Shown in pieces: positions 1-20,035 of a DNA stretch of 24,631 bases (positions are counted from its first letter, which is position 1; the number at the start of each line of letters is the position of its first letter). Origin of the DNA: Candidatus Iainarchaeum sp. Lineage in GTDB: Archaea; Iainarchaeota; Iainarchaeia; Iainarchaeales; 0-14-0-20-30-16. The position numbers and the translations under genes were made by a program. The notes beneath the pieces are model-generated. The model made no database searches and was not told the DNA's origin. It worked only from the letters and a program-made list of their open reading frames with translations. The stretch spans positions 1 to 24,631 of the forward strand of contig CAIWXP010000013.1 of assembly GCA_903916665.1 (NCBI GenBank). Direction: 5' to 3'.

Positions 1-720
1 AAAGATTTTTTTAGAAAAAAAGACATTAATTTTGAAGAATTAAATAAAGAAATATTACTAAATATTGAATTAAATAAAGATCCAATAGTTTTTGAAAAAA
101 ACCCTAAAGATTATATTCTTATTTTTACTCCAAACTCATTAAGAGGTATAATGAATAGTTTTATTATTATGCAGTCTACATTAGATTCAAAAATGAAGAA
201 AGATTCATACCTAAACACTTGTAAATTTGATAAAAAAATTAATATATTTGAAGATCCTTTTGTTAATTATTCGCCCTATTCTTGTAAATTAGATTTTGAT
301 TTTATAAACACTACGAAAAAATATTTAATTAAAAATGGGAAACAAACTGGCTATATTACAACTTTAAATGATGCTTTTAAATATAATAAAAAACCAACTG
401 GAAATAATATACCTGGATCAGTAACAAATTTGTATTTTTCAAAAGGAAAATATAATAAAGATCAATTAATTAAAAAATATAACAACGTAATTTTAATAAC
501 TAATTTAATAGGAATACACACAACTAATAGTAAAGAAGGAACTTTATGTTTATCTGCCTGTGGTATTGAATATAAAAAAGGAAAGAGAATTAATGCTTTG
601 AAAGATATTAAATTAAATGAAAAAATACAAGATCTATTTAAAAAGGTAGAAATAAGTAAAGAAACAAAATGGGTTGGAAATTATAACCTACCCTATTTAC
701 TATGTTTAAGAGATAAATAA
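1..720 (+). CDS. TldD/PmbA-family metalloprotease-like protein, C-terminal part (5' end lies outside the window)
   Basis: The frame is open from base 1 and in frame with the tracked ATG at 151. The C-terminal region (TGNNIPGSVTNLYF..., ILITNLIGIHTTNSKEGTLCLSACGIEYKKGKRI..., NLPYLL) resembles the conserved C-terminal half of TldD/PmbA proteins. The match is from memory, not from a search. Confidence 0.5.
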   Translation, partial: KDFFRKKDINFEELNKEILLNIELNKDPIVFEKNPKDYILIFTPNSLRGIMNSFIIMQSTLDSKMKKDSYLNTCKFDKKINIFEDPFVNYSPYSCKLDFDFINTTKKYLIKNGKQTGYITTLNDAFKYNKKPTGNNIPGSVTNLYFSKGKYNKDQLIKKYNNVILITNLIGIHTTNSKEGTLCLSACGIEYKKGKRINALKDIKLNEKIQDLFKKVEISKETKWVGNYNLPYLLCLRDK

Positions 721-735
721 TGAAGTGATGATGTC

Positions 736-1170
736 ATGTTACCTTGGGAACACATATTATTAGGACTATTTCCAATGATTAATCTATGGCAAACTTTTAA
801 TCCTGTTTTTGGAATGATATTTTTACTTAGTTCGGTATTAATTGATGTTGATCATTATCTTTTAGTTTTGTATGCGACTAAATTTAAAATTTGGGATTTA
901 AAAAAAGCCTATAATTTCTTTTTAATAAAACATGGCACACACTATCACATTGATGCAATATATGTTTTTCATACAATAGAATTTGTTTTGATATTGCTTT
1001 TAGTATATTGGTTTACAAGATATATTTACCTATTAGCAATAATATTTGGTTGGGTATATCATATGTTCTTTGACATTGCAGAAGTAATATACTTTAAATT
1101 GAAACATAGCAGTAGTCATAAATTCAAACAGATGTCAATAGTTTGGTATCTTATTAAGAAGAACTTGTGA
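736..1170 (+). CDS. Small polytopic membrane protein, possibly a YdjM/DUF457-like membrane-bound hydrolase
   Basis: 144 aa with several hydrophobic segments and His/Asp-rich motifs (DVDHYL, HGTHYH, FHTIEF, YHMFFD). The family assignment is weak. Confidence 0.45.
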   Translation: MLPWEHILLGLFPMINLWQTFNPVFGMIFLLSSVLIDVDHYLLVLYATKFKIWDLKKAYNFFLIKHGTHYHIDAIYVFHTIEFVLILLLVYWFTRYIYLLAIIFGWVYHMFFDIAEVIYFKLKHSSSHKFKQMSIVWYLIKKNL

Positions 1171-1210
1171 TATTTATGGCCGTACAAAAAACAATGTCAA
1201 AAAAAGTGGA

Positions 1211-1573
1211 ATGACTACCAACGAGAAAAATGAAGCTGATTTGAATAAACGATCTTCACAATTAAAAAGAGTACAAACTCAATTTGACAAAAATGAATAT
1301 AGATCTGCAATAACAAGAGCAAGAATATTATTAGAAAGAGGAGTACCCGATGCCTATTTCTTAGTTATGAATGCTTGTGTAAAACTAAAAGATGTTAAAA
1401 CTGCAGAAAGAATAGTTAAATTGGCATTAAAAAGAAATATTCGAAAAGACTATTTAGCAAAAATATTATTAGATGTATATAATGAAGCTGAAGAATTTAA
1501 CAAATATGATAAATTATACGCTAATTTAAAAATAATGAGTGCTGAAGAAGCACTAAGAAGTATTACTTCTTAG
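1211..1573 (+). CDS. Hypothetical small helical protein
   Basis: 120-aa ORF with coding-like composition and helical-repeat-like sequence. No family recognised. Its 3' end overlaps the convergent gene by 11 nt. Confidence 0.45.
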   Translation: MTTNEKNEADLNKRSSQLKRVQTQFDKNEYRSAITRARILLERGVPDAYFLVMNACVKLKDVKTAERIVKLALKRNIRKDYLAKILLDVYNEAEEFNKYDKLYANLKIMSAEEALRSITS

Positions 1574-2030
1574 TTTTCTTTTCTTGTTTGTAATTATCTA
1601 AATGATTTGGTAAATCTTGTTTTGTTGAAAAATCTTTGTATATGTGATGATTTACCAACATATGCCAATTATTTCCAATATTATAGGTAAATAATCCCAA
1701 AAACATAATTACTATTGCAAACAATACCCAAATTAAAGGCCAAAATGAAACCATTACATTTATTGTCTGATCTTGAACATATCTATCTGGATATAATGCA
1801 TGACCTGTGGTTTGATAAAAATAATCTCTACACAAAGAAGCATCTGCAGCAGTGTTTGCTTTTTCAAAACAAGTTTTTATACTACTCATAGTATCCCATT
1901 GATGAAATAGATTTGCAAATGAAACTATAAAACCAATCAACCCTATAAAGAATACAAAGGTTGCAATTAAACTAATTATATTAAAAGTATGTTTTTTATT
2001 AGACATGTATGGAATATTATGCCAAGCCAT
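1563..2030 (-). CDS. Hypothetical membrane protein
   Basis: 155 aa with two clear hydrophobic helices (FNIISLIATFVFFIGLIGFIVSF and VMVSFWPLIWVLFAIVIMFLGLF). A GGAGATGAT Shine-Dalgarno-like element lies 7 nt upstream of the ATG. Confidence 0.55.
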   Translation of the reverse strand: MAWHNIPYMSNKKHTFNIISLIATFVFFIGLIGFIVSFANLFHQWDTMSSIKTCFEKANTAADASLCRDYFYQTTGHALYPDRYVQDQTINVMVSFWPLIWVLFAIVIMFLGLFTYNIGNNWHMLVNHHIYKDFSTKQDLPNHLDNYKQEKKTKK

Positions 2031-6247: not shown

Positions 6248-8500
6248 TTAGGTTCCAACTTTCTCAATAATCTTTTTATGCAAAGCTAATAATATTTTCT
6301 TTCTATCTTCCATTAAAACTATATCTGCATCTGCTAATATTATTAAATTATGAGCAAATGGACTTGCTAAATTACTTTCAGGTAATTGCTCTAATTTAAT
6401 TTTTCCTGTGTTAATTTTATCTAATATTACCAAAGCATTATTTATATCCATGTAGTCTACCATTACTTCTCTAAATACTTCTTCAATAACTGGAAAATTT
6501 TCAATTGCGTCACAAACTTTAAATAAACGATCAGCACTCATCTGTTGACGTCCTGCGGGGTACTCATAGCCTTTATAATTTCTCAAAATCATCAATGATC
6601 TTGTGGCAACATGTCTGAATTTTCTTTTTAATAATTCTGTTTGTTTTAATGCTAGCCTTAATATCCCTGAAAAATTATCTTTTCTAATACTTTTGAATAA
6701 TTCTGATGTGTGTGGGCAAAGTTTTTTATCCTCTGCATGAATTGTTAAAATAAATCCATTATCATTCACACCAATTGGAATACTTCTTTCAACTTGTTTT
6801 GATAAAATAAATGCCAATACTCTTGACAAAGCATCATTAACTCTTCTTCCAAACAATGCATGAAATATTAAATTTTTATTGCCGGCATCATCAATATAAT
6901 CTTCTATAACTATATTATTATTGTTAGGATAAATATTTGTTTTTAGAGAATCTAAAAACTTTTGTTCATAGTAAAAATAATCTGTTATTGCTTTGCTTGC
7001 ATTCAAATCAATTTTATATTCTTTAATTAAGTGATCTTTGATTTCTGTTTTTGTTTTAAATTTACAAAGCACAAAAATCTCACCACGAAATTTTCCTATT
7101 TCTTGAGATAAATCAAAATTCAAAGGTAATTGTTCTGAAAACCAACTAGGTACTGTAGGCTTTCTATCTTTCAAAGCAATAACAAATGCAGTCATTCCTA
7201 ATGAACGAGAAAACTGATAACTTTTTCCCGCCAAAACAAAAATATCTCCTTTTGATAAACGAGCTAGAAAATCTTCCTCTATTGTTCCAATGATATCTCC
7301 TTTTGTTGTTTTAACTTTCACTTTAACTTCATCAGGAATAGTTCCTATGTTCATTGAATATAACATTCTCGCTAATCTTCCTCGCTTTCCAAATTGATTT
7401 AACACAGGATCATACCAAATTTTTCCATAGACGTGTTTATCTTCTAAACTATGATATTCCCCTGACATATATTTTATTACATTCATGTAAGTTTCGTAGG
7501 TTATATCGTTATAACAATAGGATTGCTTAATTAATTCGTAGGCATCTTTGATATACCATTTATTTTCTAGACTTAATCCCATAATATGTTGACACAAAAC
7601 ATCCAAAGCATTTTTTACTATATGAATTCTATCTAACCAGTTTTCTGATGCTTTCTTGAACATTACAGTTGTTTCAACCAAATCATCTCTATCTAAGCAA
7701 ATAACTCTTCCTTTAGATGTTTGATGAATCTTATGCCCAGCTCTTCCAATTCGTTGAAGTGCTCGCGAAACACTTTTAGGTGAGCCTATTTGTATTACTA
7801 AATCAACAAATCCAATATCAATTCCTAATTCTAAACTTGTTGAACTTACAATAACTTTTAATTTTCCTGCTTTCAATTTATTTTCCAATTCTAATCTTGT
7901 TTCTTTTGAAACAGAAGAATGATGCGCACCAATATCTTCATCACTATAGGTTTCAGGATAACTATCTTTTAAATGATGAACTATTCTTTCTGTTCCCGAT
8001 CTTGTATTAGTAAAAATTAAAGTTGTTGTATGGGTTCTAATTTGTTTATCTAAAAAATCATATAATTTTTTGTTTATAGTTTCTGTATCAGTATACATCA
8101 AATCATTTGTTGGACTCATAACAACTATATCCATTGTTTTTGAAAATCTTGCATCTATTACTATACAATCTCTTGGTTCATTATTTTCAAAACCAACTAA
8201 ATATTTCGCAACTTCTTCCAATGGTTCTAGTGTAGCTCCTAAACCAATTCGAACCATTTTATGTTCAACTAAATGTTGTAACCTTTCAATACTTAATGAT
8301 AAATGAGCACCTCTTTTTGAATTTGCTAACTCGTGTATTTCATCAATAACAATATATTTAACACTTTTTAATTTTTCTCTGAATTTTGGAGCACATAATA
8401 ATATTGCTAATGTTTCAGGAGTAGTACATAAAATATGTGGAGGCTTTCTTAATTGTTTAGCTCTTATTTTTGTTTCTGTGTCACCAGTTCTTATTCCCAC
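6248..8500 (-). CDS. lhr: Lhr-family superfamily-2 DNA helicase, C-terminal 750-aa fragment (motif Ib to C-terminus). It is in frame with the upstream fragment across one TAA.
   Basis: RTGDT, PPHILCTTPETL, the DEIH box (VIDEIHEL), FTNTR, SSTSLELGIDIG and QRIGRAGH, followed by Lhr-type WH and C-terminal domains. The tracked start is a GTG that is simply the Val codon of ...LRVGIRTGDT. Confidence 0.85.
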   Translation of the reverse strand: MGIRTGDTETKIRAKQLRKPPHILCTTPETLAILLCAPKFREKLKSVKYIVIDEIHELANSKRGAHLSLSIERLQHLVEHKMVRIGLGATLEPLEEVAKYLVGFENNEPRDCIVIDARFSKTMDIVVMSPTNDLMYTDTETINKKLYDFLDKQIRTHTTTLIFTNTRSGTERIVHHLKDSYPETYSDEDIGAHHSSVSKETRLELENKLKAGKLKVIVSSTSLELGIDIGFVDLVIQIGSPKSVSRALQRIGRAGHKIHQTSKGRVICLDRDDLVETTVMFKKASENWLDRIHIVKNALDVLCQHIMGLSLENKWYIKDAYELIKQSYCYNDITYETYMNVIKYMSGEYHSLEDKHVYGKIWYDPVLNQFGKRGRLARMLYSMNIGTIPDEVKVKVKTTKGDIIGTIEEDFLARLSKGDIFVLAGKSYQFSRSLGMTAFVIALKDRKPTVPSWFSEQLPLNFDLSQEIGKFRGEIFVLCKFKTKTEIKDHLIKEYKIDLNASKAITDYFYYEQKFLDSLKTNIYPNNNNIVIEDYIDDAGNKNLIFHALFGRRVNDALSRVLAFILSKQVERSIPIGVNDNGFILTIHAEDKKLCPHTSELFKSIRKDNFSGILRLALKQTELLKRKFRHVATRSLMILRNYKGYEYPAGRQQMSADRLFKVCDAIENFPVIEEVFREVMVDYMDINNALVILDKINTGKIKLEQLPESNLASPFAHNLIILADADIVLMEDRKKILLALHKKIIEKVGT

Positions 8501-8521: not shown

Positions 8522-8914
8522 TTATTTCTTTTTTGCGATTTCACTTATTTCTTCTAAAGGAGTAATTAGATTTTTTTCAACATCATTAATCAATGCTTTC
8601 AAAGGACTAATATAGATACAATAAACTTCGTCTTTCAATTCTTGTTTTTCTTCTAAATTACAAAGTTCATTTATTATTGCTCCAAAACCAGAAATAGTTT
8701 TTCCTGATCCTGTTGGCGCAGTTACTAAAGTATTTTTACCTAGGTGAATTGCAGGTATTGATAATCTTTGAGGGGGTGTTAACTTCTTGAAACCTGTTTC
8801 AAACCATTCTCTAACGTAAGGTCTTAAGATAGCAAATACTTCTTTGTCCTCAGGAGCCTTATCGCTGGTAATATACTTAATCATAAAATCACAACATAAA
8901 CATGAATTAATCAA
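8522..8914 (-). CDS. lhr: Lhr-family helicase, N-terminal fragment (Q-motif and Walker A), ending at an in-frame TAA
   Basis: VREWFETGFKKLTPPQRLSIPAIHLGKNTLVTAPTGSGKT ... YISPLKALINDV is the canonical Lhr N-terminus. The likely true start is the second ATG (MIKYI..., 8884). Confidence 0.85.
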   Translation of the reverse strand: MINSCLCCDFMIKYITSDKAPEDKEVFAILRPYVREWFETGFKKLTPPQRLSIPAIHLGKNTLVTAPTGSGKTISGFGAIINELCNLEEKQELKDEVYCIYISPLKALINDVEKNLITPLEEISEIAKKK

Positions 8915-8999: not shown

Positions 9000-9064
9000 A
9001 GATTATTAAAATTCGACCTTTGTGAAGAAGTTCTGATACTTTATCTAACTTTTGAACAAAATGA

Positions 9065-10273
9065 CTATTCTATTTGATGATCATCGTAGTTTAGAATTCT
9101 ACCTGCGTCTTCAGATCTATTTTCAGCAGTATAATATTGTGATAGCTTTTGAGACACTCTCGCAAAACCAGCCATATCTTTATGTAATCTATATTGTTCT
9201 CTAGCAAAAAGATATGTTGATTCCAATTCTCTTTTAAAATCAACTAGGGATAATCCAAATGCAGTATAATGATCCCAACCATCCTGGTTTTTTTTTAATT
9301 TATATTTTTTCTCATTATGACTCATATCTGGAACATAGGTATTTTTAATAAATAATGAATCTACGGACTCTGGATAATATTTTGAATATTGATCTCCAGC
9401 GATTTCAAATAAATCTGCAAAATTATTATTATCACCAATTAATGTTGATTTTAAACTATTAATAAATTCTCTAAAACCCATAAAAAATACATAAGCCTCT
9501 ACCGTTTCTTTTATTTGACTCATTTTCCCAGACCTATCTATACTATTATAATTATAGGAAATCGGTTTTTTATATTCTGTAGGATAACTTAAAATTAAAT
9601 ATTTAAAAAAATCATTAAATATGGACTCGCCTAATGATCCACCAAATCTACTACAATAGTCTTTAACAAAATGTATAAAATCAGAGAAATCTGGTAAAAT
9701 TAAACTTTTCTGTTTCCATTTCTGGTCAACTGTTCTAATATCAAATGATCCTGAAATATTATCGACAGAAAAATGTAAAGACAATATGGAACGCACCATA
9801 TTTTTTAAAAAACTATTTCGTTCAAAAATTTCTTTGGGGCTGCTACCAAATTCAAAGCACTTTAAAAAAAGATATTTTAATGCAAATGATTGAACTTTTG
9901 AAGTATAATTTGTATTTACAGAATTTCTAGAATCTAAATATTTTTGTATTATGATTTCAAATCTTTTTGTTCTCCAAAAATCCTCAAATTCAAAAAATAT
10001 AGAATCATTCCCTGACTCCAACGCATTATCAAACAATCCAAAAAAATGATTTTCTATAATTTCTGAATCTTTCTTCGGATCTCCAACTAATAATGATCTA
10101 TCAAATCCCTTAGGTAAATAATCACTATGAGCTTCTTCACGAGATTGATCTGCAGCAATTCTTTTAGCTAATTCAAATTGCCTTAAACGATTTTTTAATT
10201 TTAATTCTTGATTAAAATTACGCCGTTTTCTTAATGCCTCTACTAATCTTTTAAATGTTGGTTTTTCAGCCAT
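9065..10273 (-). CDS. Hypothetical 402-aa protein, last gene of the GHKL-swivel cluster
   Basis: Long uninterrupted ORF that starts 17 nt after the upstream gene. It has a basic N-terminus (KRLVEALRKRRNFNQELKLKNRLRQ) and looks mostly helical. No motif recognised. Confidence 0.7.
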   Translation of the reverse strand: MAEKPTFKRLVEALRKRRNFNQELKLKNRLRQFELAKRIAADQSREEAHSDYLPKGFDRSLLVGDPKKDSEIIENHFFGLFDNALESGNDSIFFEFEDFWRTKRFEIIIQKYLDSRNSVNTNYTSKVQSFALKYLFLKCFEFGSSPKEIFERNSFLKNMVRSILSLHFSVDNISGSFDIRTVDQKWKQKSLILPDFSDFIHFVKDYCSRFGGSLGESIFNDFFKYLILSYPTEYKKPISYNYNSIDRSGKMSQIKETVEAYVFFMGFREFINSLKSTLIGDNNNFADLFEIAGDQYSKYYPESVDSLFIKNTYVPDMSHNEKKYKLKKNQDGWDHYTAFGLSLVDFKRELESTYLFAREQYRLHKDMAGFARVSQKLSQYYTAENRSEDAGRILNYDDHQIE

Positions 10274-10290
10274 AGTTTCACATTTTAATT

Positions 10291-11409
10291 TTATAATTTC
10301 TTTATATCATAGGGTGTTAGATCTTGAGTCATAACTTGTATTTTTAAGTTATTTGGTAAATGCCAAACTATATCTTTAAATACTGCTGCATGACCTGATT
10401 CATATTCATCTAATTTTAATATTTTTGCAATTTCACCATGTATTTTTCCAAACCAAAATGGAATTAATTGTGGATCTATTTCACCAAAAATATCTTTTGC
10501 TTCAATAAATTGTCTAGACATACCATAAACAGCAATAAATTCAGTATATTCTTTTTTAGACAATTTTTTCTTTGCTAATTTAACAATTTTTTCTAATCTT
10601 ACTTTCATTGATTCAAATCTTTGTTGTAAATCTAATGATTTTTGTCTAAATTGAATACTATGAATTACAACATTATAGACCATTAAATTATCGCCTCTAA
10701 CTTTAGCACCATGAAATGGCAATAATTTCATTACTTCTTGATATAATTTATTATCTTTATGTGATTCTAATTCTATAAGTAATTTCTCAATAATTGCATA
10801 ACTATCATCGTATTTTTCCACTGCAACTTTTGCTTTTATATCATCAGAATATTTCTTTAATGTTTTATTTGAAATCATTAAATCATATAACTTAATTCCT
10901 TTCAAAACACTCTTCAAATATAAATCAGCATAGTCACTTTGCAATAAATCTCTTTCCAATTGTAAAACTGATTTATCTTTTTCATCCAGATCTTCCCATA
11001 CAGATACTTTTTCGGCATATTCTCTAACTTTTGAAACATAATAATCATGTAAAGGCCCATCACAAAATAAATAATTTATAATCCAAAATCTATAGCAAAA
11101 TAATTTATGCAGTCTTTGATCGATATCAATTAAAAAATCTAAGTCTTTTTTCTTACAATTATCATAATCTTTTTTTATCTTCTCAAATCCTTGAAACAAA
11201 TCTTTTTGTAAATCAAAACAAGTTTGTCTAAATTTTACAGGATTATTATGAAGTTGTTTTACTAATTTTGTGTAATATTCTTTTATTGGTGGAAACTTTT
11301 TAGGATAATAAACTGTAAAATCTTCAACATCATTAGGTAAAACTTTTGGAAATCTAAATAAATGTTCTATTTCATTCCCCATCATATACCACCCCATTAT
11401 AGGCATCAA
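10291..11409 (-). CDS. Hypothetical 372-aa helical protein, third gene of the GHKL-swivel cluster
   Basis: Long ORF whose 5' end overlaps the GHKL gene stop (11372-11374). The real start is probably one of the internal Met codons (MMGNEIEHL, about 11385/11382), leaving an overlap of about 11-14 nt. No family recognised. Confidence 0.7.
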   Translation of the reverse strand: MMPIMGWYMMGNEIEHLFRFPKVLPNDVEDFTVYYPKKFPPIKEYYTKLVKQLHNNPVKFRQTCFDLQKDLFQGFEKIKKDYDNCKKKDLDFLIDIDQRLHKLFCYRFWIINYLFCDGPLHDYYVSKVREYAEKVSVWEDLDEKDKSVLQLERDLLQSDYADLYLKSVLKGIKLYDLMISNKTLKKYSDDIKAKVAVEKYDDSYAIIEKLLIELESHKDNKLYQEVMKLLPFHGAKVRGDNLMVYNVVIHSIQFRQKSLDLQQRFESMKVRLEKIVKLAKKKLSKKEYTEFIAVYGMSRQFIEAKDIFGEIDPQLIPFWFGKIHGEIAKILKLDEYESGHAAVFKDIVWHLPNNLKIQVMTQDLTPYDIKKL

Positions 11410-12631
11410 CTATTATTTTTTGACCATCTCTAATTCGTTCTGTTGCATTTCTAGTTCCAACTATTGCTGGAATTCCAAATTCTCTTGCAACTATTGCTGC
11501 GTGACATAAAGCCCCACCTTGATCAGTAACAATTGCACTAGCTCTTTGTATTTGTAAAATAAATTGAGGTCTAGTCATACCAGTTACAATTATGCTTCCT
11601 GGTTTTATTCGATCTAATTCTTTAATTGGTGTTTCAGGCCACAAATCAATTACTACCGCAATACCTTCAACTCGTCCCCCACTTGCCGGCAAACCAGAAA
11701 CTATTTTTTGCAATTTAGTATCAAAATCTTTCATGTAATCAATTAATTTCTTTTTCACTTCTTTAAACTCTTTTGATTCTCTAATCCAATCTCTTTTATT
11801 ATGAGTTACAGGAACATGATCCATATGTAATTCACCAATAATCTGTTTATCTTTTTGAGATGAACTAATTGCAAATTTATCGAACGTACTAATTAATCTA
11901 TTCAATCTATAGGTATTAAAACCGAAATAATCCCCCATAGTATCTTTCATTTTAAAACCATACCAACCAGTAACTTTATTTCCAGAAGGCAATTTAATAT
12001 TTATATTGTGTTTCCCTTCAACTGTTAAATTTATAATATATGGTTTACATAATTTATTATTTACTTTTATTTCAACTAAATTATTTTCTAAAAAAGGAGC
12101 AAATCTTTTTGAAAATTCTTCCATTAATCTTGCAACTTCTTTTTCTTCTGTATTAATTCGTAAATTATTTACTTTAATTATTGTTCCAGTAAATAATTTT
12201 GTTTTTTTAACTAATTGCATAGGATATTTTGTCCAAGATCCTGAATCTAACCATTTCTTTTCTGAATATTCAATAAAATATGCAAATTTATCTTTTTCTG
12301 TAGAAGTGTAAATACTAAACTTTTCACCCATACTTGAACAGGCAGTTTTTAATCCTAAACCAAACATTCCCAAAAGTTTTTTCTTTTTAGAAAAACCTAA
12401 TCTTATTGAACTGGCAGCATCTTCTTTAGACATACCAAAACCATTATCTTCAATAACAATTTCTTTTCCAATTGATATTTTTATATTTAATTTTTTGCCT
12501 TCAACTCTAGCATCAATTGAATTATCAACTAATTCTGCAATTGCTTCTGTTAATGAATATCCACTGTTACCCAATTTTAACATTATAGATCTGTGTGGTG
12601 TAATATCAATATACTCTGTCTTTCCAATCAA
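11372..12631 (-). CDS. MORC/Hsp90-type GHKL (Bergerat-fold) ATPase fused to a C-terminal PEP-utilizer mobile ('swivel') phosphohistidine domain
   Basis: GHKL N-box EAIAELVDNSIDA (Asn37), G1 box IEDNGFGM and G2 box GMFGLGLK, then a prokaryotic MORC-like middle region (GFNTYRLNRLI...IIGELHMDHVPVTHNKRDW). The C-terminal approx. 100 aa (GRVEGIAVVI...PGSIIVTGMTRPQFILQIQRASAIVTDQGGALCHAAIVAREFGIPAIVGTRNATERIRDGQKIIVDAYNGVVY) is a textbook PEP-utilizer mobile domain with the phospho-acceptor His retained (His377, codon 11501-11503). Confidence 0.8.
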   Translation of the reverse strand: MIGKTEYIDITPHRSIMLKLGNSGYSLTEAIAELVDNSIDARVEGKKLNIKISIGKEIVIEDNGFGMSKEDAASSIRLGFSKKKKLLGMFGLGLKTACSSMGEKFSIYTSTEKDKFAYFIEYSEKKWLDSGSWTKYPMQLVKKTKLFTGTIIKVNNLRINTEEKEVARLMEEFSKRFAPFLENNLVEIKVNNKLCKPYIINLTVEGKHNINIKLPSGNKVTGWYGFKMKDTMGDYFGFNTYRLNRLISTFDKFAISSSQKDKQIIGELHMDHVPVTHNKRDWIRESKEFKEVKKKLIDYMKDFDTKLQKIVSGLPASGGRVEGIAVVIDLWPETPIKELDRIKPGSIIVTGMTRPQFILQIQRASAIVTDQGGALCHAAIVAREFGIPAIVGTRNATERIRDGQKIIVDAYNGVVYDGE

Positions 12632-13364: not shown

Positions 13365-14276
13365 TTAATCTTTCAACTTATAAGTCTTTAATTCTTCGCC
13401 GAGTTCAGCATCAGGATAGGTAGATTGAACTTCGTGTAATAAAGCATTCAAATCTGTGTATCTTGCACTGAAATTAAAAATTATTAACTTTTTTACTTTT
13501 GCGTTCTTTGCAACTTTACCAACATTATCTGTTACACTGTGAAAATTCTTTCTTGCCAACGCAATATCTTTTTTCATAAACATAGCTTCATGAAATAAAA
13601 CATCAACATTTTCTAAGAAAGTATCATAATCTTTATCAAAACAATCAACAACATAGCCCAGAGATTTTCCGTGTTTTATACTATCTAAATCCATTACATC
13701 TTTAGGATGAATTTTCTTTCCTTTAAATTCAATTGTTTTTCCATCCTGCAATTGTGAATACATTGGACCTTCTGGAATACCCAATGCAACAGCTTTAGCT
13801 TTTAAAAATTTTCCAACTTTATCTTTTTCTTTGAAAACAAAAGCATAGGTCTCTAACAAATGTTTAACTCTTCTTGCAAACACTTGATATTCTTTTGTAT
13901 CACAAACCAAACCATTTGATAACTCTTGATATTTAATAGGATAAACTGTTTGTATTTCATATATTTCCAATAATTTAGTTATTCTTTGTTCTACTCCTCT
14001 CGGACCATAGATAACAACAGGATCCTCTCTTTTATGCAAAGACATTGTTGCCAATAAACCTGGCAAACCTAAGAAATGATCAGCATGAAAATGAGATATG
14101 AAAATTTTATCAATTTCCATATTACTTACTTTAGAACGCATTAACTGTTGTTGAACACCTTCACCAGCATCAAAAAGAATAACTTCGCCATCAAATTTAA
14201 CTGCTAAACAGCTATGATTTCTATCTTTTAAAGGTATTGAACTACTTATACCCAATAATGTTGCTTGAAATACCAT
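13365..14276 (-). CDS. rnz: Ribonuclease Z (tRNA 3' endonuclease, metallo-beta-lactamase fold)
   Basis: 303 aa with the HxHxDH motif ISHFHADHFLGLPGLL, N-terminal LGISSSIP...RNHSCLAV, and a typical short-form RNase Z length. Confidence 0.85.
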   Translation of the reverse strand: MVFQATLLGISSSIPLKDRNHSCLAVKFDGEVILFDAGEGVQQQLMRSKVSNMEIDKIFISHFHADHFLGLPGLLATMSLHKREDPVVIYGPRGVEQRITKLLEIYEIQTVYPIKYQELSNGLVCDTKEYQVFARRVKHLLETYAFVFKEKDKVGKFLKAKAVALGIPEGPMYSQLQDGKTIEFKGKKIHPKDVMDLDSIKHGKSLGYVVDCFDKDYDTFLENVDVLFHEAMFMKKDIALARKNFHSVTDNVGKVAKNAKVKKLIIFNFSARYTDLNALLHEVQSTYPDAELGEELKTYKLKD

Positions 14277-14387
14277 AATAATCTTATATAATATATGCTA
14301 TGATATTTATATATTATTATAGTATATATCAATATACAAAATTTACTGTCTAATGGGCAGATTATATATTTGAAGGATTGATTTAAT
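14277..14387. promoter_or_regulatory. Divergent promoter region between rnz (minus) and PIN-cca (plus), with several TATA-like boxes
   Basis: A 111-nt, almost pure A/T intergenic region (CTTATATAATATATG, TTTATATATTATTATAGTATATATC) sits between two divergently oriented start codons. Confidence 0.4.
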
Positions 14388-16001
14388 ATGCAAAAGGTAT
14401 TTGACACTTCAGCTTTTCTAAATAGATTCTTCTTCAATGACATTGAAAATGTGATAACAACTAATTCTGTATTATTAGAAATAAAAAATAGAGAACAAAA
14501 AATGCAAATTGAAAATCTAATTCAAAGAGGAAAAATTCAAATACAAGACCCTTCAAAAGAAATATTTATTCAAATAAGAGCCAAAGCGCCCAAAATGCTA
14601 TCAAGAACAGATGTTGAAGTGGTAGCATTAGCAAAAGAATTAAACCTAGAATTGCATACTGATGATTTTATGATGCGAAAATTTTGTAATGATTTGAAAA
14701 TTAAAGCTTGCCCAATTGCCTATGCTATGCAAGACAATGAAAATATTTTAGATACTGTTTATGAAAAAATAAAACCTACAAAAGAAGAATTAGAAAATAT
14801 TAAAAAAATAAGTAAAGAAATTATTGCAAAATTGAACATAACAGTAAAAAAAGAAAACTATCCAATTAAAAAAATTATATTGGCAGGATCTAGTCCGAGA
14901 GGTACTTTTATTAGCAATAAAAAAGATCTAGATATATTTTTATTATTTGATTTATCTTTAACTGTTGAAGATATTAGAAAATACAATGAATTAATATTGC
15001 GTAAGACATTTCCAAAAATTAAATTTAGAGAAGAATATGGGGAACACCCTTATTTGAAAGCAGTTATAGATGATCACAATATTGATTTCGTTCCTGGATT
15101 TTATATAAAAAACATAAAAGAAAGAAAATCTTCCGTTGATAGAACACCTTTACATTTAGCTTTTTTAAATAAACATCAAAGTGAAGAAATTAAAAAACAG
15201 GTTATTATTTTAAAACAATTTTTAAAGAATAATTTGCTTTATGGAGCCGATCAAAAAAACAATGGTTTTTCTGGATATTTAACAGAACTTTTAATATTAG
15301 AGTTTAAAACATTTGAAAACACATTAAAAGAATTAATTGATATTGAAAAAAATAAATATATTTACATCAATAAACCCAAAATAATGAAAAAGTTTGACGA
15401 TTACTTTGTTTTCCTAGATCCTACTGATGAATCAAGAAACGTTGCTTCTGCAGTATCAAAAAAAACAATGAGCATATTCAAAGATGTTGCAAAAAGATAT
15501 TTAAATGAAAAGAATATTGATTTCTTTTTCAAAGATATTTATCCAAAAATAGAAAAGGATCTGGTTTGTTTTATTATAAAAATTGATGGAAAAACAGAAG
15601 ATTCAAATTGGGGAATAGTAAAAGGACTAACAAAAAGATTGGCAAATGAATTAAATACAAAACACTATAATGTTGTTAACCATTCTGGAATAATTCATGA
15701 AAATAAAGGATTGATCATTTTAGAGAGTAAATTAAAGGATACATTGAGAGGCCCTGAATTAAAGGACACAAAAAATTCAAAAGCATTTAAAGCAAAACAT
15801 AAAACTTTCTATATCAAAGACAATAGGCTATACTGCGATGTTAATTTATCAAAAGAAGCATTGGTTAAAGATTCTAAAAAGCTTTTGAAAAGTTTATCTA
15901 ACAATAGTGCAAAACTAATTGATTATAAAACCATTAAACTAATGCCCGAAGAATTAAAAAGAATTAGAAAGGACTTTTTAAACCCAAAGGAAAAGGATTA
16001 A
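14388..16001 (+). CDS. cca: Fusion protein: N-terminal Nob1-like PIN nuclease domain plus archaeal class I CCA-adding enzyme (tRNA nucleotidyltransferase)
   Basis: Residues 1-112 (VFDTSAFL...TTNSVLLEIKNRE...LSRTDVEVVALAKELNLELHTDDFMMRKFCNDLKI) resemble the archaeal Nob1 PIN domain and retain the acidic residues D6/E31/D75/D92. No zinc ribbon is present. Residues from about 118 onward carry class I CCA motifs: LAGSSPRGTFISNKKDLDIFLLF, EHPYL, VDFVPGF, SSVDRTPLH and GFSGYLTELLILEF. Confidence 0.8.
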   Translation: MQKVFDTSAFLNRFFFNDIENVITTNSVLLEIKNREQKMQIENLIQRGKIQIQDPSKEIFIQIRAKAPKMLSRTDVEVVALAKELNLELHTDDFMMRKFCNDLKIKACPIAYAMQDNENILDTVYEKIKPTKEELENIKKISKEIIAKLNITVKKENYPIKKIILAGSSPRGTFISNKKDLDIFLLFDLSLTVEDIRKYNELILRKTFPKIKFREEYGEHPYLKAVIDDHNIDFVPGFYIKNIKERKSSVDRTPLHLAFLNKHQSEEIKKQVIILKQFLKNNLLYGADQKNNGFSGYLTELLILEFKTFENTLKELIDIEKNKYIYINKPKIMKKFDDYFVFLDPTDESRNVASAVSKKTMSIFKDVAKRYLNEKNIDFFFKDIYPKIEKDLVCFIIKIDGKTEDSNWGIVKGLTKRLANELNTKHYNVVNHSGIIHENKGLIILESKLKDTLRGPELKDTKNSKAFKAKHKTFYIKDNRLYCDVNLSKEALVKDSKKLLKSLSNNSAKLIDYKTIKLMPEELKRIRKDFLNPKEKD

Positions 16002-16029: not shown

Positions 16030-16857
16030 ATGACTAAGATATTTGATAGGTTAAAAAAAGCTTTTGACTCTGAAGACAGCATTCACGAAAGGGAACTCGA
16101 ATTATTAGAATATATTTCTAAGTATGAGAATAAACTTGAGAAAGAATCTAATTCTGAAAGATGGAAAGATATTGCAAAAACAGTTCAAAAGTTAAAAAAA
16201 GAATTACAAGACTTACATGAAAATGATCCTATTAAATTAAAATATAGATTAGACGAATTAAACAAAGATTTGGCCGATGAAGAAACAAAAAATTCAGAAG
16301 CCAAAACAATTAAAAACTATTTTCAATTCATTGTTGAGAAAAATCTAGCCTGTATGCAAAAAACAAGTGCAGAAGATTTAAAGAGCCTAATTGATTATAG
16401 TGCAATTGATTTTGACATGGTTTTTGAAAAAATAACGCCTAAAGACTATTCCTACGAAGATAATTATTTGGATGCAATTGAAAACCTATATGATTTATTG
16501 GAAGAAGATTTTGATATAATTATTCAAAAAACTCCAAATTACCTATTAACTGCGGCAGACATTTTACAATTAAAATCAGGCAATCAAGCAGATATAAGTA
16601 TATTTGTTTGTGCAATTATGCACAAATTAGGAGACTTTAATGCAAAAGTAACTGTTGCACTATTAGATGATTTCACAACAATTCATTTTGTTCAAACAAA
16701 ATATAAATACAGAACGCTAATATTTGATTTTTATAATTCTGAAAAATACAATGACTACTTAGAATACGATAATAAGATTTGGGAAAAATATAAACCTGAA
16801 GACAAAGCAATAAGAGAAATAAAATTTTCGTTTAATAAGTTTAATTATGAAGAATAA
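16030..16857 (+). CDS. Hypothetical protein with an N-terminal coiled coil and a C-terminal transglutaminase-like (papain-fold) region in which the catalytic Cys position is Gln
   Basis: GNQADISIFVCAIMHKLGDFNAKV...TIHFVQTKY...LIFDFYN aligns by eye with the transglutaminase-core pattern G-x-C-x-D-F-A-x-L-F-x-A-L-x-R-x-L-G...H-x-W-x-E...D. This gives Q186/H219/D233. The 3' end overlaps the first pilin-like gene by 11 nt. Confidence 0.35.
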   Translation: MTKIFDRLKKAFDSEDSIHERELELLEYISKYENKLEKESNSERWKDIAKTVQKLKKELQDLHENDPIKLKYRLDELNKDLADEETKNSEAKTIKNYFQFIVEKNLACMQKTSAEDLKSLIDYSAIDFDMVFEKITPKDYSYEDNYLDAIENLYDLLEEDFDIIIQKTPNYLLTAADILQLKSGNQADISIFVCAIMHKLGDFNAKVTVALLDDFTTIHFVQTKYKYRTLIFDFYNSEKYNDYLEYDNKIWEKYKPEDKAIREIKFSFNKFNYEE

Positions 16858-17311
16858 AGGATTTTTTGCATTTATTATTTGTGCACTATTAATTTTACTT
16901 ACCATAGAACTTGTTGCAATTAAAATTAATTTTAATAAACAACAACTAATTACAGACAAAGAATTGATTGAAATTAAAGATCTTTCATATATGAGAACCG
17001 AATTCGAATATAATGTTAAAAACGCCATTAAAATACATTTGGATAATGCAGTGCAAATTACACAGGAACAACCTGTTTTAAAAACGTCAGTAGATGAATT
17101 AGTCAAATCAATATTAAATGATTATAATTTTAATTCTACTCTTAATTCCGGATTATTAATTACAATATTTTCCTGTGGCATTAACAATTGTATTTATTAT
17201 AAATATTCAATACTTTTGCCAATAACAAAAGAAATAACAAAAAATAACAAAATCATTGAATTTAAATTACCAATAAATTATAGTGTTGAAAATACAGTGG
17301 TGATTCCTTGA
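16847..17311 (+). CDS. Pilin-like protein with a class III (type IV prepilin-like) signal peptide
   Basis: The N-terminus MKNKG|FFAFIICALLILLTIELVAI has a short basic leader, Gly, then a hydrophobic helix. The ATG overlaps the upstream stop. Confidence 0.6.
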   Translation: MKNKGFFAFIICALLILLTIELVAIKINFNKQQLITDKELIEIKDLSYMRTEFEYNVKNAIKIHLDNAVQITQEQPVLKTSVDELVKSILNDYNFNSTLNSGLLITIFSCGINNCIYYKYSILLPITKEITKNNKIIEFKLPINYSVENTVVIP

Positions 17312-17562
17312 ACAAAAAAGCACAATTATCAATATATTTTTTAATTATGATAATTGCTATTATTGGAATTTTAGCTATATTTGTTAAGGAAATTTATAAA
17401 TTAAATGAGTTAAAGATTAATTTGAAAACCAACTATGATTTTAAAGAAACAAAGGAACTATTATCCACATTAAATAGTGCAAAAAAATCAATAATAAAAG
17501 AAATAAATCGAGGTCCCTTTATAATTAATTCTGATATTAATGTTGGAGATCACTATGAATAG
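17308..17562 (+). CDS. Small pilin-like protein with a class III signal peptide
   Basis: A TTG start overlaps the upstream TGA (TTGA). The N-terminus (M)NKKA|QLSIYFLIMIIAIIGILAIF matches the archaeal [KR][GA]|Q-L/I-S prepilin pattern. Confidence 0.6.
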   Translation: MNKKAQLSIYFLIMIIAIIGILAIFVKEIYKLNELKINLKTNYDFKETKELLSTLNSAKKSIIKEINRGPFIINSDINVGDHYE

Positions 17563-17938
17563 AGGATTTACATTATATGATTTCCTTTTTGTATTATTTT
17601 GCTGTGTTCTTTGTTTTGTGGTATTTTTCTCTATCATTGAAAACGATCTTAATAGATTTGATAAATTAACACAATACTTGATAATAACAGAGAATGCAAT
17701 TTCAAAAAATAATCTAGAAGGAATAGGTTTTGCAAAAATTGATAATGAAACAAAAACAACTTTACAAAATACAATAGAAAACCCTAAACTAATTGATCCG
17801 ATTAAAAGAATAGAATTATATGATGAAAATAATAAAATATTTGATATTGGAAACGATTGTGAAAAACAAATTAAACTATCGAGGCTAGCAATATATGAAG
17901 ATAAAATTGTTAAAGCAGTATTTACATTCTGTGAATAG
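17555..17938 (+). CDS. Pilin-like protein with a class III signal peptide (start re-assigned from 17540 to ATG 17555)
   Basis: From ATG 17555 the N-terminus is MNRG|FTLYDFLFVLFCCVLCFVVFF, which is G|FTL-like with an acidic residue at +5. The start overlaps the upstream stop as ATGAATAG. Confidence 0.6.
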   Translation: MNRGFTLYDFLFVLFCCVLCFVVFFSIIENDLNRFDKLTQYLIITENAISKNNLEGIGFAKIDNETKTTLQNTIENPKLIDPIKRIELYDENNKIFDIGNDCEKQIKLSRLAIYEDKIVKAVFTFCE

Positions 17939-18284
17939 CAAAGGAATATTATTTATCGTAGAAATATTATTTGTATTTTTATTCCTTGCTATTTTTATTT
18001 TGGCCTATTCAAATATTAATTATTCCTATAATGATTCAAAAATAATAAATTACTATAAATGTCAAGATATTTTTGTTTTGAGTGTTGCAAAGAACTTATC
18101 AATAAATGAAATTAAAGATTTAATACAGCAATATTTACCAAATAGTGACTATGTTATTGATGATAAAAACACAAAAATTGAAAATTTAAATAACAATAAA
18201 AAAGAATGTTATGCAAAGACTATTTTAATATATAATGATTTTCCAACTACAAAAAAAGAAATGTATATTAAAATTTGTTCTTAA
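17931..18284 (+). CDS. Pilin-like protein with a class III signal peptide (start re-assigned from 17895 to GTG 17931)
   Basis: From GTG 17931 the N-terminus is (M)NSKG|ILFIVEILFVFLFLAIFILAY. The junction GTGAATAG mirrors the ATGAATAG junction of the previous pair. The tracked ATG 17895 would add 12 residues that lie inside the upstream gene. Confidence 0.55.
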   Translation: MNSKGILFIVEILFVFLFLAIFILAYSNINYSYNDSKIINYYKCQDIFVLSVAKNLSINEIKDLIQQYLPNSDYVIDDKNTKIENLNNNKKECYAKTILIYNDFPTTKKEMYIKICS

Positions 18285-18835: not shown

Positions 18836-20035
18836 ATGGACATAAAAGACATGTTTAGAAAAGAAATAAACAAAAAGAGTGTTTTCAAAAATAAAGACTT
18901 GATATCTCCGCATTTTGTGCCGGATACTTTGCCCTTTAGAGAAAATCAAATTCAAGACATAATTACTAATTTGGCCCCTGCTTTACAAGGAATAATGCCC
19001 ACTAATCTTTTTATTTATGGAAAAACTGGAACAGGAAAAACATCAACAATAAATAAAGTATTAGAAAAAATGATTGAAATACAAAAAGAAAGTAATATTC
19101 AACAAAGAATTTTAACTGTTTATATTAATTGTAGAACCTATAACTCTAAATATAAAGTTCTATTAAAAATTTCAGATAATTTATTTCCAAAAAGTTATTT
19201 TGGTTATAGTGCTAGTTTTATCTATGACTGCATTGTAAAAGAATTGGTTAAGAAAAAAGTTTTTGTGCTAGTTGTTTTGGATGAAATTGATTTAATAAAA
19301 GATGCAAATGATGCAATTTATTCTTTGGTAAGAATTAATGATGAAATAAAAGAAGGCGCTATAACAATTATTGGTGTTTCAAATAATGTTTTATTTAAAG
19401 ATCAATTAGACACAAGAACAAAAAGTGGCCTTTGTAAAAAAGAATTAGTATTTCCACCCTATAATGCACAAGAATTAAGAGAAATTTTATTGCAAAGAGT
19501 TAATATTGGTTTTCAAGATGATTGTGTTGGAGATGGTGCGCTTGCTTTGGCCAGTGCCTATGCTGCCCAAGAATCCGGGGATGCAAGAACTGCGCTATTA
19601 TTATTAGAAAGTGCAGGAGAAATTGCAGATAAAAAACAAACCTATAAAATAACAGAAGAAGAAATAACAGAAGCAAAGAAAAATGTTGAAGAAGAATTAA
19701 TTGTTGATATGATTTCTACTTTACCTGATCAAATTAAAATTGTTTTATTCTCAGTAGCAACCATGGTAAAAAGTAATAGATTCTCTACACACTTATTAGA
19801 TGATGGTTACGTTATTTATTCTGGTGATGCCTACGTTGAATACGTAAAACAAATTAAACAATTATCAAAACAACCAGTTACAATGAAATGGTTTAAAGAA
19901 TATCTAGAAGAGCTTACAACCTATGGTTTATTGATTACAACAACTTCTGGAAAAGGAGTTAGAGGATCAACCACATTAATCAAAATGGCCATAGATACTA
20001 ATACAGTATTAAAAGTTTTAGAAACTAGTCTGTGA
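18836..20035 (+). CDS. cdc6: Orc1/Cdc6 replication initiator (AAA+ plus winged helix)
   Basis: PFRENQIQ, Walker A LFIYGKTGTGKTS, Walker B VVLDEIDLI, sensor-1 IIGVSNN, GDARTALLLLE, and a C-terminal winged-helix region. Confidence 0.9.
   Translation: MDIKDMFRKEINKKSVFKNKDLISPHFVPDTLPFRENQIQDIITNLAPALQGIMPTNLFIYGKTGTGKTSTINKVLEKMIEIQKESNIQQRILTVYINCRTYNSKYKVLLKISDNLFPKSYFGYSASFIYDCIVKELVKKKVFVLVVLDEIDLIKDANDAIYSLVRINDEIKEGAITIIGVSNNVLFKDQLDTRTKSGLCKKELVFPPYNAQELREILLQRVNIGFQDDCVGDGALALASAYAAQESGDARTALLLLESAGEIADKKQTYKITEEEITEAKKNVEEELIVDMISTLPDQIKIVLFSVATMVKSNRFSTHLLDDGYVIYSGDAYVEYVKQIKQLSKQPVTMKWFKEYLEELTTYGLLITTTSGKGVRGSTTLIKMAIDTNTVLKVLETSL

Follow-up and report, generated by a model that had tools for sequence, protein, structure and literature searches.

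The fused PIN-cca gene and its two domains

The stretch of DNA analysed here (the window) covers positions 1 to 24,631 of contig CAIWXP010000013.1 of Candidatus Iainarchaeum sp., with a G+C content of about 27%, and the gene under study encodes a nuclease domain and a CCA-adding enzyme (Cca) in one polypeptide of 537 aa. This PIN-cca open reading frame (ORF) runs from 14388 to 16001 on the plus strand, begins with ATG and is uninterrupted. Since the nearest in-frame stop lies upstream of the ATG with only two sense codons in between (the frame segment starts at 14382), the N-terminus of the product is fixed, and the ORF list agreed with the first-pass annotation, which had reported a single ORF here, larger than the usual archaeal Cca; the unfused relatives are mostly about 410-480 aa. 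The protein is composed of a Nob1-family PIN endonuclease domain that lacks a zinc ribbon (residues 1-112; 14388 to 14723, plus strand), a short, variable linker predicted to be disordered (residues 113-120; 14724 to 14747, plus strand), and a complete archaeal class I CCA-adding enzyme (residues 121-537 and the stop codon; 14748 to 16001, plus strand). Divergent from PIN-cca lies the gene for RNase Z, the tRNA 3'-trailer endonuclease (rnz; 13365 to 14276, minus strand, 303 aa), and the two genes are separated by a 111-bp spacer (14277 to 14387) that is very AT-rich.

The N-terminal domain matched PIN_6 (PF17146, the Nob1 family) over residues 4-85, scoring 43.6 bits within the complete sequence and 47.7 bits when residues 1-117 were searched alone, against a gathering threshold of 27. 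The generic, VapC-type PIN family PF01850 scored below its threshold (13.3 versus 23.6 bits), as did PIN_5 (PF08745), which gave 18-22 bits (22.1) against a threshold of 27 and covered residues 72-108 only. When residues 1-117 were compared with the sequences of solved structures, Pyrococcus horikoshii Nob1 (PhNob1; 2lcq_A) was the top match (E 2.3e-13, residues 4-103) and yeast NOB1 (8c01_o) came second, and the PRK12496 models (about 165 aa), which are probably of the archaeal Nob1 type, matched the fused protein through its PIN part alone. The AlphaFold model of residues 1-113 had a predicted local distance difference test score (pLDDT) of 93.1, and in a Foldseek search its best fold match was again 2lcq (E 2.7e-9, TMq 0.84), with human and yeast NOB1 from pre-40S particles next, ranked above HARP and VapC. 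The PIN fold is the same as that of PhNob1 (PDB 2LCQ; PIN_6, COG1439), with a root-mean-square deviation of about 2 Å, 37% identity and the same acidic residues. These results show that the domain is specifically Nob1-like and is not a generic VapC PIN, as had been proposed for residues up to about 112 from the sequence alone.

The acidic positions thought to be catalytic in the first-pass annotation, D6 (14403-14405), E31 (14478-14480), D75 (14610-14612) and D92, were all retained, and D93 (D92-D93, 14661-14666, all on the plus strand) is invariant as well. Across the 18 fusions that we compared, E31, D75, D92 and D93 are invariant, and D6 is present in every one that has an N-terminus; the full-length relative of P0017 lies in locus L039. 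All five residues are also invariant in an alignment of the window PIN with 36 stand-alone Nob1 proteins, and D6, D75, D92 and D93 correspond to D12, D82, D99 and D100 of PhNob1. The PIN domain of PhNob1 holds a Mn2+ site and substrate-positioning residues and binds single-stranded RNA weakly, while its zinc ribbon, carried on a flexible linker, is the anchor to helix 40 (PMC3326319). We regard it as very improbable that the PIN part serves as a toxin of the VapC kind or as a nuclease for defence, or that it is an inactive domain with a structural role on Cca. PIN domains are common as toxins, and many archaeal Nob1 proteins are labelled 'VapC family toxin' at NCBI, but here PIN_6 is clearly above and PF01850 below threshold, the best structures are those of Nob1, no antitoxin-like gene adjoins PIN-cca, the upstream neighbour being the divergent RNase Z gene, and PADLOC gave only weak nucleotidyltransferase-fold matches, located in the Cca part. 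An inactive appendage is likewise at odds with the invariance of the acidic residues and with the conservation of the PIN, which is as high as that of the Cca head.

Canonical members of the Nob1 family (155-180 aa) carry two CxxC motifs, whereas neither a CxxC motif nor a conserved Cys was found in any of the 18 fusions, and a profile hidden Markov model (HMM) of stand-alone Nob1 aligned to the fused PIN only over positions 1-117 of about 157. Because the fusions have no CxxC motif or conserved Cys, the zinc ribbon is truly absent, which is in agreement with the first-pass annotation; unlike PhNob1, the window protein continues after the linker with a 417-residue CCA-adding enzyme in place of the C-terminal, four-cysteine zinc ribbon.

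The C-terminal part exceeded the equivalog cut-off of TIGR03671 (cca_archaeal; 297.1 versus 281.3 bits, residues 121-494) and matched the Pfam families NTP_transf_2 (residues 155-255) and tRNA_NucTransf2 (residues 271-381). In our working division of the domain, the head comprises residues ~121-262 (including G167-T173 and D180/D182), the neck ~263-385, and the body and tail ~386-537. Among the residues that are invariant in 18 of 18 fusions are G167, S168, R171, T173, D180, D182 and D251-H256, which make up the Pol-beta-type nucleotidyltransferase motifs GS..R.T and D.D and the DRTPLH motif of the neck domain. In a Foldseek search with the whole model, the CCA-adding enzyme of Archaeoglobus fulgidus (AfCCA; 1R89, 3OVA; TIGR03671) was matched with E 4e-29, about 430-450 aligned columns and a TMt of about 0.7. 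The whole Cca part aligns with AfCCA and the nucleotidyltransferase motifs are present; the window protein differs in its extra 120-residue N-terminal nuclease module, and the sequence identity is only about 24%. More distant fold matches were found to long chains of the small-subunit (SSU) processome or 90S pre-ribosome (7mq8_NH and 6rxv_UV), which, judging from chain length, are probably Utp22. The model is thus that of a complete class I enzyme with head, neck, body and tail, for which CCA addition is predicted. Since two tRNA genes of an Iainarchaeum relative have no encoded CCA, Cca activity is needed. Other class I Cca fusions were also observed, namely P0251 (695 aa) and P0326 (708 aa), with an N-terminal PAP2 membrane phosphatase domain, and P0250 (592 aa), with a C-terminal cytidylyltransferase-like domain.

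The AlphaFold2 model of the full-length protein, built from an alignment of 116 sequences, had a mean pLDDT of 95.3 and a predicted TM score of 0.81, and pLDDT fell below 50 at residues 113-116 and in the C-terminal tail, nowhere else. The model indicates two well-folded modules on a flexible tether, a Nob1-like PIN fold and a CCA-enzyme fold. An internal start at Met114, which had been suggested as the source of a stand-alone Cca isoform, was rejected: Met114 is present in the window protein yet not conserved, a Met near the junction occurs in 4 of 18 homologues, and the linker is variable.

Conservation, gene linkage and origin of the fusion

When 5.8 billion proteins were searched, 17 further clusters that combine PIN_6 with Cca were recovered. 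These proteins are 527-551 aa long and 77% down to 40% identical, and they come from NCBI, JGI, ENA and Logan assemblies, so that at least 18 clusters in all share the architecture; more fused loci were seen in JGI metagenome contigs (L035-L039 and L041). Pairs of sequences among the 18 fusions are on average 59% identical over the PIN, 63% over the Cca head, 61% over the neck and 44% over the body and tail; for the linker, which varies in length and contains indels, the mean is 25%. It had been considered from the outset that a missed stop or frameshift might have joined two adjacent genes, and chimeric assembly would be another way to such an artefact. One homologue, P0121 (131 aa), did seem to be split in this manner; however, the coverage of its contig is 0.53 and all of its genes are fragmented, which marks it as a broken copy of the fusion. 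The PIN-cca ORF has no break, and the same uninterrupted form, with a conserved junction, was obtained from independent samples by different assemblers and is represented by at least 18 clusters. The chance of an artefact is in our estimate negligible; the fusion is real and, judging from the pattern of sequence conservation, under selection.

The fusion is restricted to a small uncultured clade of DPANN archaea. In a profile search of 1.84 billion representatives of proteins clustered at 50% identity, only two clusters, P0003 and P0017, span the profile from position 1 or 10 to 533; no other listed match begins before position 104, and nearly all of them begin at 110-130, as expected of unfused Cca. 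The carriers among GTDB species representatives are 'Candidatus Diapherotrites archaeon CG08_land_8_20_14_0_20_30_16' and two metagenome-assembled genomes of uncultured archaea, the fusion-bearing genomes being PEXK01 (the Diapherotrites archaeon), CAZMGA01 and CAZQQS01, and a genome of Candidatus Iainarchaeum is the closest relative without the fusion. The lineage is that of the Iainarchaeota (formerly Diapherotrites) in the kingdom Nanobdellati, or DPANN. One fusion member, PIU22067.1, is named just 'CCA tRNA nucleotidyltransferase' at NCBI, and members at JGI are named likewise. Full-text literature searches and the PIN-superfamily catalogue (PMC5499597) contained no mention of a PIN_6-Cca architecture; as far as these sources go, the earlier impression that the architecture is undescribed was correct.

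The neighbouring gene was assigned to RNase Z by TIGR02651 (295.7 bits versus a cut-off of 292.95), NF000801 (292.1 versus 252) and the Pfam family Lactamase_B_4, 'tRNase Z endonuclease'. The same head-to-head arrangement of rnz and PIN-cca was found at L001-L003, L009, L011, L031 (which carries the deep-branching P0018 fusion), L035-L038 and L041, and was not found at the fusion locus L004; in the relatives that share the arrangement, the spacers measure about 45-110 bp. The 111-bp spacer of the window would constitute a putative bidirectional promoter region shared by the two genes. The pairing extends to Iainarchaeum-like genomes in which the PIN is not fused and in which RNase Z and the PIN share only about 45% identity with their counterparts in the window: at L042 and L045, rnz directly adjoins a divergent PIN-only gene at a distance of about 45 bp, and the two genes lie farther apart at L012, with one Fic-like gene between them, and at L044, with a gap of ~680 bp. 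On a 916-bp contig (L030), the PIN-only gene P0123 is head-to-head with the start of an unfused cca gene, 33 bp away, the product of which is 50% identical to the Cca head of the window. By comparison, neither rnz nor cca was found within about 10 kb of 17 canonical Nob1 loci from Thermoprotei, Nitrososphaerota, Methanobacterium, haloarchaea, Thermoplasmata and Altiarchaeales, and three other PIN-only Nob1 lineages (L032-L034) showed housekeeping contexts, next to RFC or PheRS genes. A Nob1-type PIN gene is thus repeatedly tied to both enzymes of tRNA 3'-end maturation, and among the loci examined it is so only in this clade; linkage to both rnz and cca distinguishes the gene of the window from the canonical nob1 loci examined.

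Some other features of these loci were recorded. The protein encoded between RNase Z and the PIN-only gene at L012 of STB_43 (9028-9927, minus strand, 299 aa) has an HPFGDGNGR Fic-like motif that was recognised by eye. At L031, a minimal nucleotidyltransferase and HEPN pair of toxin-antitoxin-like appearance (616-1585, plus strand) adjoins the RNase Z and PIN-cca genes. In the window, a gene for a 275-aa protein (16030-16857, plus strand) starts 28 bp after PIN-cca; its only match was a sub-threshold one to UCH, and it may be co-transcribed with the fusion. It is followed by a run of small ORFs with hydrophobic, pilin-like N-termini (16847-18284, plus strand). Homologues of the 275-aa protein and of the next protein (154 aa) occupy the same positions across the fusion loci compared, and genes of similar size follow. 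A conserved ~265-aa neighbour of the PIN-only genes was considered as a partner and dismissed, since these neighbours show no mutual homology and none to the 275-aa protein of the window. An Orc1/Cdc6 gene (18836-20035, plus strand) lies about 3 kb downstream of PIN-cca, and the cumulative GC skew has its minimum at about 14000, at the divergent junction of rnz and PIN-cca where gene orientation switches.

A profile of the fused PINs retrieved many stand-alone, PIN-only Nob1 homologues, which are 111-144 aa long and have no CxxC motif. The closest non-fused PINs are P0122 (119 aa), P0123 (113 aa) and a 114-aa protein of Candidatus Iainarchaeum sp. STB_43. P0122 and the unfused cca gene P0241 are on one 238.5-kb JGI contig, at different sites, and in STB_43 the PIN-only gene (L012) and the unfused cca (L005) are about 25 kb apart on JAQTTP010000001.1. 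The genomes of the unfused relatives are JAQTTP01 and JGI 3300072015. Since these sister lineages have both a stand-alone PIN-only Nob1 and an unfused cca, loss of the zinc ribbon is older than the fusion and is not its consequence. The fused PIN itself appears from its sequence relationships to be the clade's own Nob1 orthologue. Stand-alone PINs without a zinc ribbon (P0122-P0133, P0141-P0144, P0152, P0166 and P0202) were also observed to fall into several distinct groups from metagenomic archaea; the groups probably belong to DPANN archaea, and we found no description of them.

In Cca trees built by neighbour joining (NJ) on simple distances, the fused Cca sequences and P0241 formed one clade in 199 of 200 bootstraps. 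Within it there is an unresolved three-way split between 16 'core' fusions (200/200), the P0017/P0018 fusions and the unfused P0241, the three resolutions being obtained in 38, 114 and 45 of the 200 replicates. A single origin of the fusion had 98/100 support in the first Cca tree, which did not contain P0241, and that support collapsed when P0241 was added; one fusion, a fusion followed by fission, and two fusions are indistinguishable in these NJ trees. A neighbouring nob1 and cca pair that could simply have been joined was seen neither in STB_43, where the genes are ~25 kb apart, nor in the organism with P0122 and P0241. The only adjacent PIN-only gene and cca are those of L030, where they are divergent.

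Possible functions of the fused protein

The reading that we favour, with a probability of about 0.5, is that both domains keep their ancestral activities, cleavage of the 16S rRNA 3' end and CCA addition, within a co-regulated RNA 3'-end module. The N-terminal domain would be the Nob1 of this lineage, a manganese-type PIN endonuclease that lost its zinc-ribbon RNA anchor before the fusion took place and that is connected through a short flexible linker with a complete class I CCA-adding enzyme. In this view, the D-site cleavage at the 3' end of pre-16S rRNA that is typical of Nob1 would be carried out by the PIN, and tRNAs would receive their CCA from the Cca part. The joining of the two genes would mark a step in the consolidation of a 'stable-RNA 3'-end maturation' module, in which RNase Z, the Nob1 PIN and Cca are grouped around one bidirectional promoter, and no obligatory chemical hand-off between the two active sites would be required; our data show the architecture, the conserved state of the two active sites, the pattern of orthology and the gene linkage, and we infer the substrates of the PIN, the co-regulation and the independence of the two activities. 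The apparent orthology favours a retained Nob1 identity, and, because a canonical RNase Z is encoded next door, the ordinary removal of tRNA 3' trailers needs no new nuclease. With our own Nob1 HMM and six-frame translations, no second Nob1 homologue was detected in the window (24.6 kb) or in the parts of fusion contigs available, which amount to about 100 kb and are a small part of each genome. No tRNA or rRNA genes were found in the window or in the scanned fusion loci.

Several observations weigh against this proposal. The zinc ribbon by which Nob1 is anchored to the small subunit is missing, which leaves ribosome targeting unexplained. The PIN gene is linked to both enzymes of tRNA 3'-end metabolism, being head-to-head with rnz in fused and unfused form, next to cca on L030 and fused to cca here, and this linkage is absent from the 17 canonical and the 3 other PIN-only Nob1 loci. 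Repeated linkage that is specific to a clade usually signals a direct functional tie and not mere co-regulation, and the conserved association of rnz, PIN and cca favours such a tie to tRNA 3'-end metabolism. Furthermore, a separate canonical nob1 gene may exist elsewhere in the genome and would free the fused PIN for another role.

Given this linkage, one could envisage that the zinc-ribbon-less Nob1 homologue has turned into a tRNA 3'-end endonuclease within an RNase Z, PIN and Cca module, and that the fused form cuts faulty ends and rebuilds CCA at once. We hold this to be a serious rival, though less probable than the retention of both ancestral activities. According to this alternative, the Nob1-derived PIN would cleave 3' ends that have been extended, damaged or tagged aberrantly, such as ends of the CCACCA type or long trailers, while the tRNA is held by the Cca body and tail, and Cca would then restore the CCA end; such an activity could either replace the Nob1 role or be added to it. 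The conserved head-to-head pairing of the PIN gene with rnz, maintained among relatives only ~45% identical and with spacers of ~45 bp at L042 and L045, is in good agreement with this possibility, as are the gene fusion itself, the pairing with unfused cca on L030, the lack of any such linkage at the other Nob1 loci and the loss of the ribosome-anchoring ribbon. In addition, only about 8 residues tether the PIN to the N-terminus of the Cca head, and it is in the head domain of class I enzymes that the tRNA 3' end enters the polymerase site. The sister family PIN_5, represented by HARP, a pre-tRNA endonuclease, was also among the next-best fold matches.

Against a cleave-and-rebuild enzyme, the fused PIN is not obviously diverged from stand-alone Nob1: its scores with the stand-alone Nob1 HMM are similar (103-113 bits, compared with 117-127 bits for stand-alone PIN-only relatives), and the alignments revealed no conserved residue that separates the 18 fused PINs from the PIN-only proteins. 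A canonical RNase Z is present for trailer removal, the linker is disordered in the model, stand-alone PIN-only orthologues exist without Cca, and the fused PIN must still serve the ribosome if it is the sole Nob1 homologue.

Known systems provide partial parallels. HARP, the minimal protein-only RNase P (PIN_5; 7OG5, 8KDA), is a PIN family that acts on pre-tRNA, and it was matched weakly in sequence by the window PIN (E 0.05). It differs in being about 190-205 aa long, with a helical insertion, in forming dodecamers and in cutting the 5' leaders of tRNAs, whereas the window PIN has 112 aa. The class II Cca of Escherichia coli contains an HD domain with phosphatase and 2',3'-cyclic phosphodiesterase activities, which have been read as serving tRNA 3'-end repair. 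It is likewise a CCA enzyme with a second catalytic domain for RNA 3' ends, but the polymerase class, the accessory fold (HD versus PIN) and the chemistry (end-healing versus endonucleolytic) differ, and the accessory domains are unrelated. In Rrp44/Dis3, a PIN endonuclease is reported to be fused to an RNB 3'-exonuclease (PMC2651783). A PIN and a second RNA 3'-end enzyme are joined there in one polypeptide, as they are here; however, Rrp44/Dis3 is eukaryotic and exosome-bound, its partner domain degrades 3' ends and does not extend them, and its PIN is of another family.

If the PIN still matures 16S rRNA, as in the favoured reading, its missing anchor might have been replaced by Cca, which would bind structured RNA in place of the zinc ribbon. 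Docking of Cca, either to a tRNA or a similar element close to the pre-16S rRNA 3' end or to a helix within the pre-30S particle, would bring the weakly binding PIN to the D site. We consider such a replacement rather unlikely. In its favour, Cca is located exactly in the position of the zinc ribbon, C-terminal to the PIN and connected through a flexible linker, a layout that mirrors the low-affinity catalytic domain and the flexibly linked RNA anchor of PhNob1 (PMC3326319). A CCA-enzyme-like fold also takes part in eukaryotic small-subunit biogenesis: Utp22 is reported to be an SSU-processome factor with such a fold (PMC3794860), and the class I CCA-enzyme fold is in this sense usable in small-subunit rRNA maturation. 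Utp22 differs from the window protein, which has intact Cca motifs, in that it is duplicated and catalytically degenerate and has no fusion to Nob1. The invariance of the Cca active-site motifs argues that Cca is not a mere scaffold, and the PIN-only orthologues of the sister lineages apparently manage without either anchor.

Other features of the window and implications of the fusion

Two further genes of the window attracted our attention. An Lhr-type DEAD/DEAH helicase gene on the minus strand is split by an in-frame TAA at 8522-8524, within an A-rich stretch (...EISEIAKKK*KVKLDLRVG...), into ORFs of 130 aa (8522-8914) and 750 aa (6248-8500), while its relatives have a single 876-aa gene; the split could reflect a nonsense mutation, a pseudogene or a sequencing error. 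The ORF at 11372-12631 (minus strand) encodes a 419-aa GHKL/MORC-type ATPase (HATPase_c_3, Morc6_S5) that carries a PEP-utilising 'mobile' domain at its C-terminus, an unusual architecture, and it gave a weak PADLOC match to MzaB.

Both Nob1 and Cca work on the 3' ends of RNA, and both are housekeeping enzymes of nearly universal occurrence. As far as we have found, the PIN-cca gene joins these two well-known enzymes in an undescribed domain architecture and an undescribed gene linkage; our literature searches found no report that links Nob1 with Cca. The naming of such proteins as 'CCA tRNA nucleotidyltransferase' hides the nuclease domain, and genomes that carry the fusion may seem to be without Nob1. 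Given that Nob1 exists without a zinc ribbon in many lineages, probably of DPANN archaea, one may ask how the nuclease is directed to the small subunit in them. If the PIN did act on tRNA, the fused protein would be a repair and quality-control machine with no described counterpart, and a universal nuclease family that matures 18S and 16S rRNA would have been given a new substrate. A testable idea that follows from the architecture and the linkage is that, in the reduced genomes of DPANN archaea, a single module may organise the maturation of rRNA and tRNA 3' ends, perhaps with a mechanistic coupling of the two.

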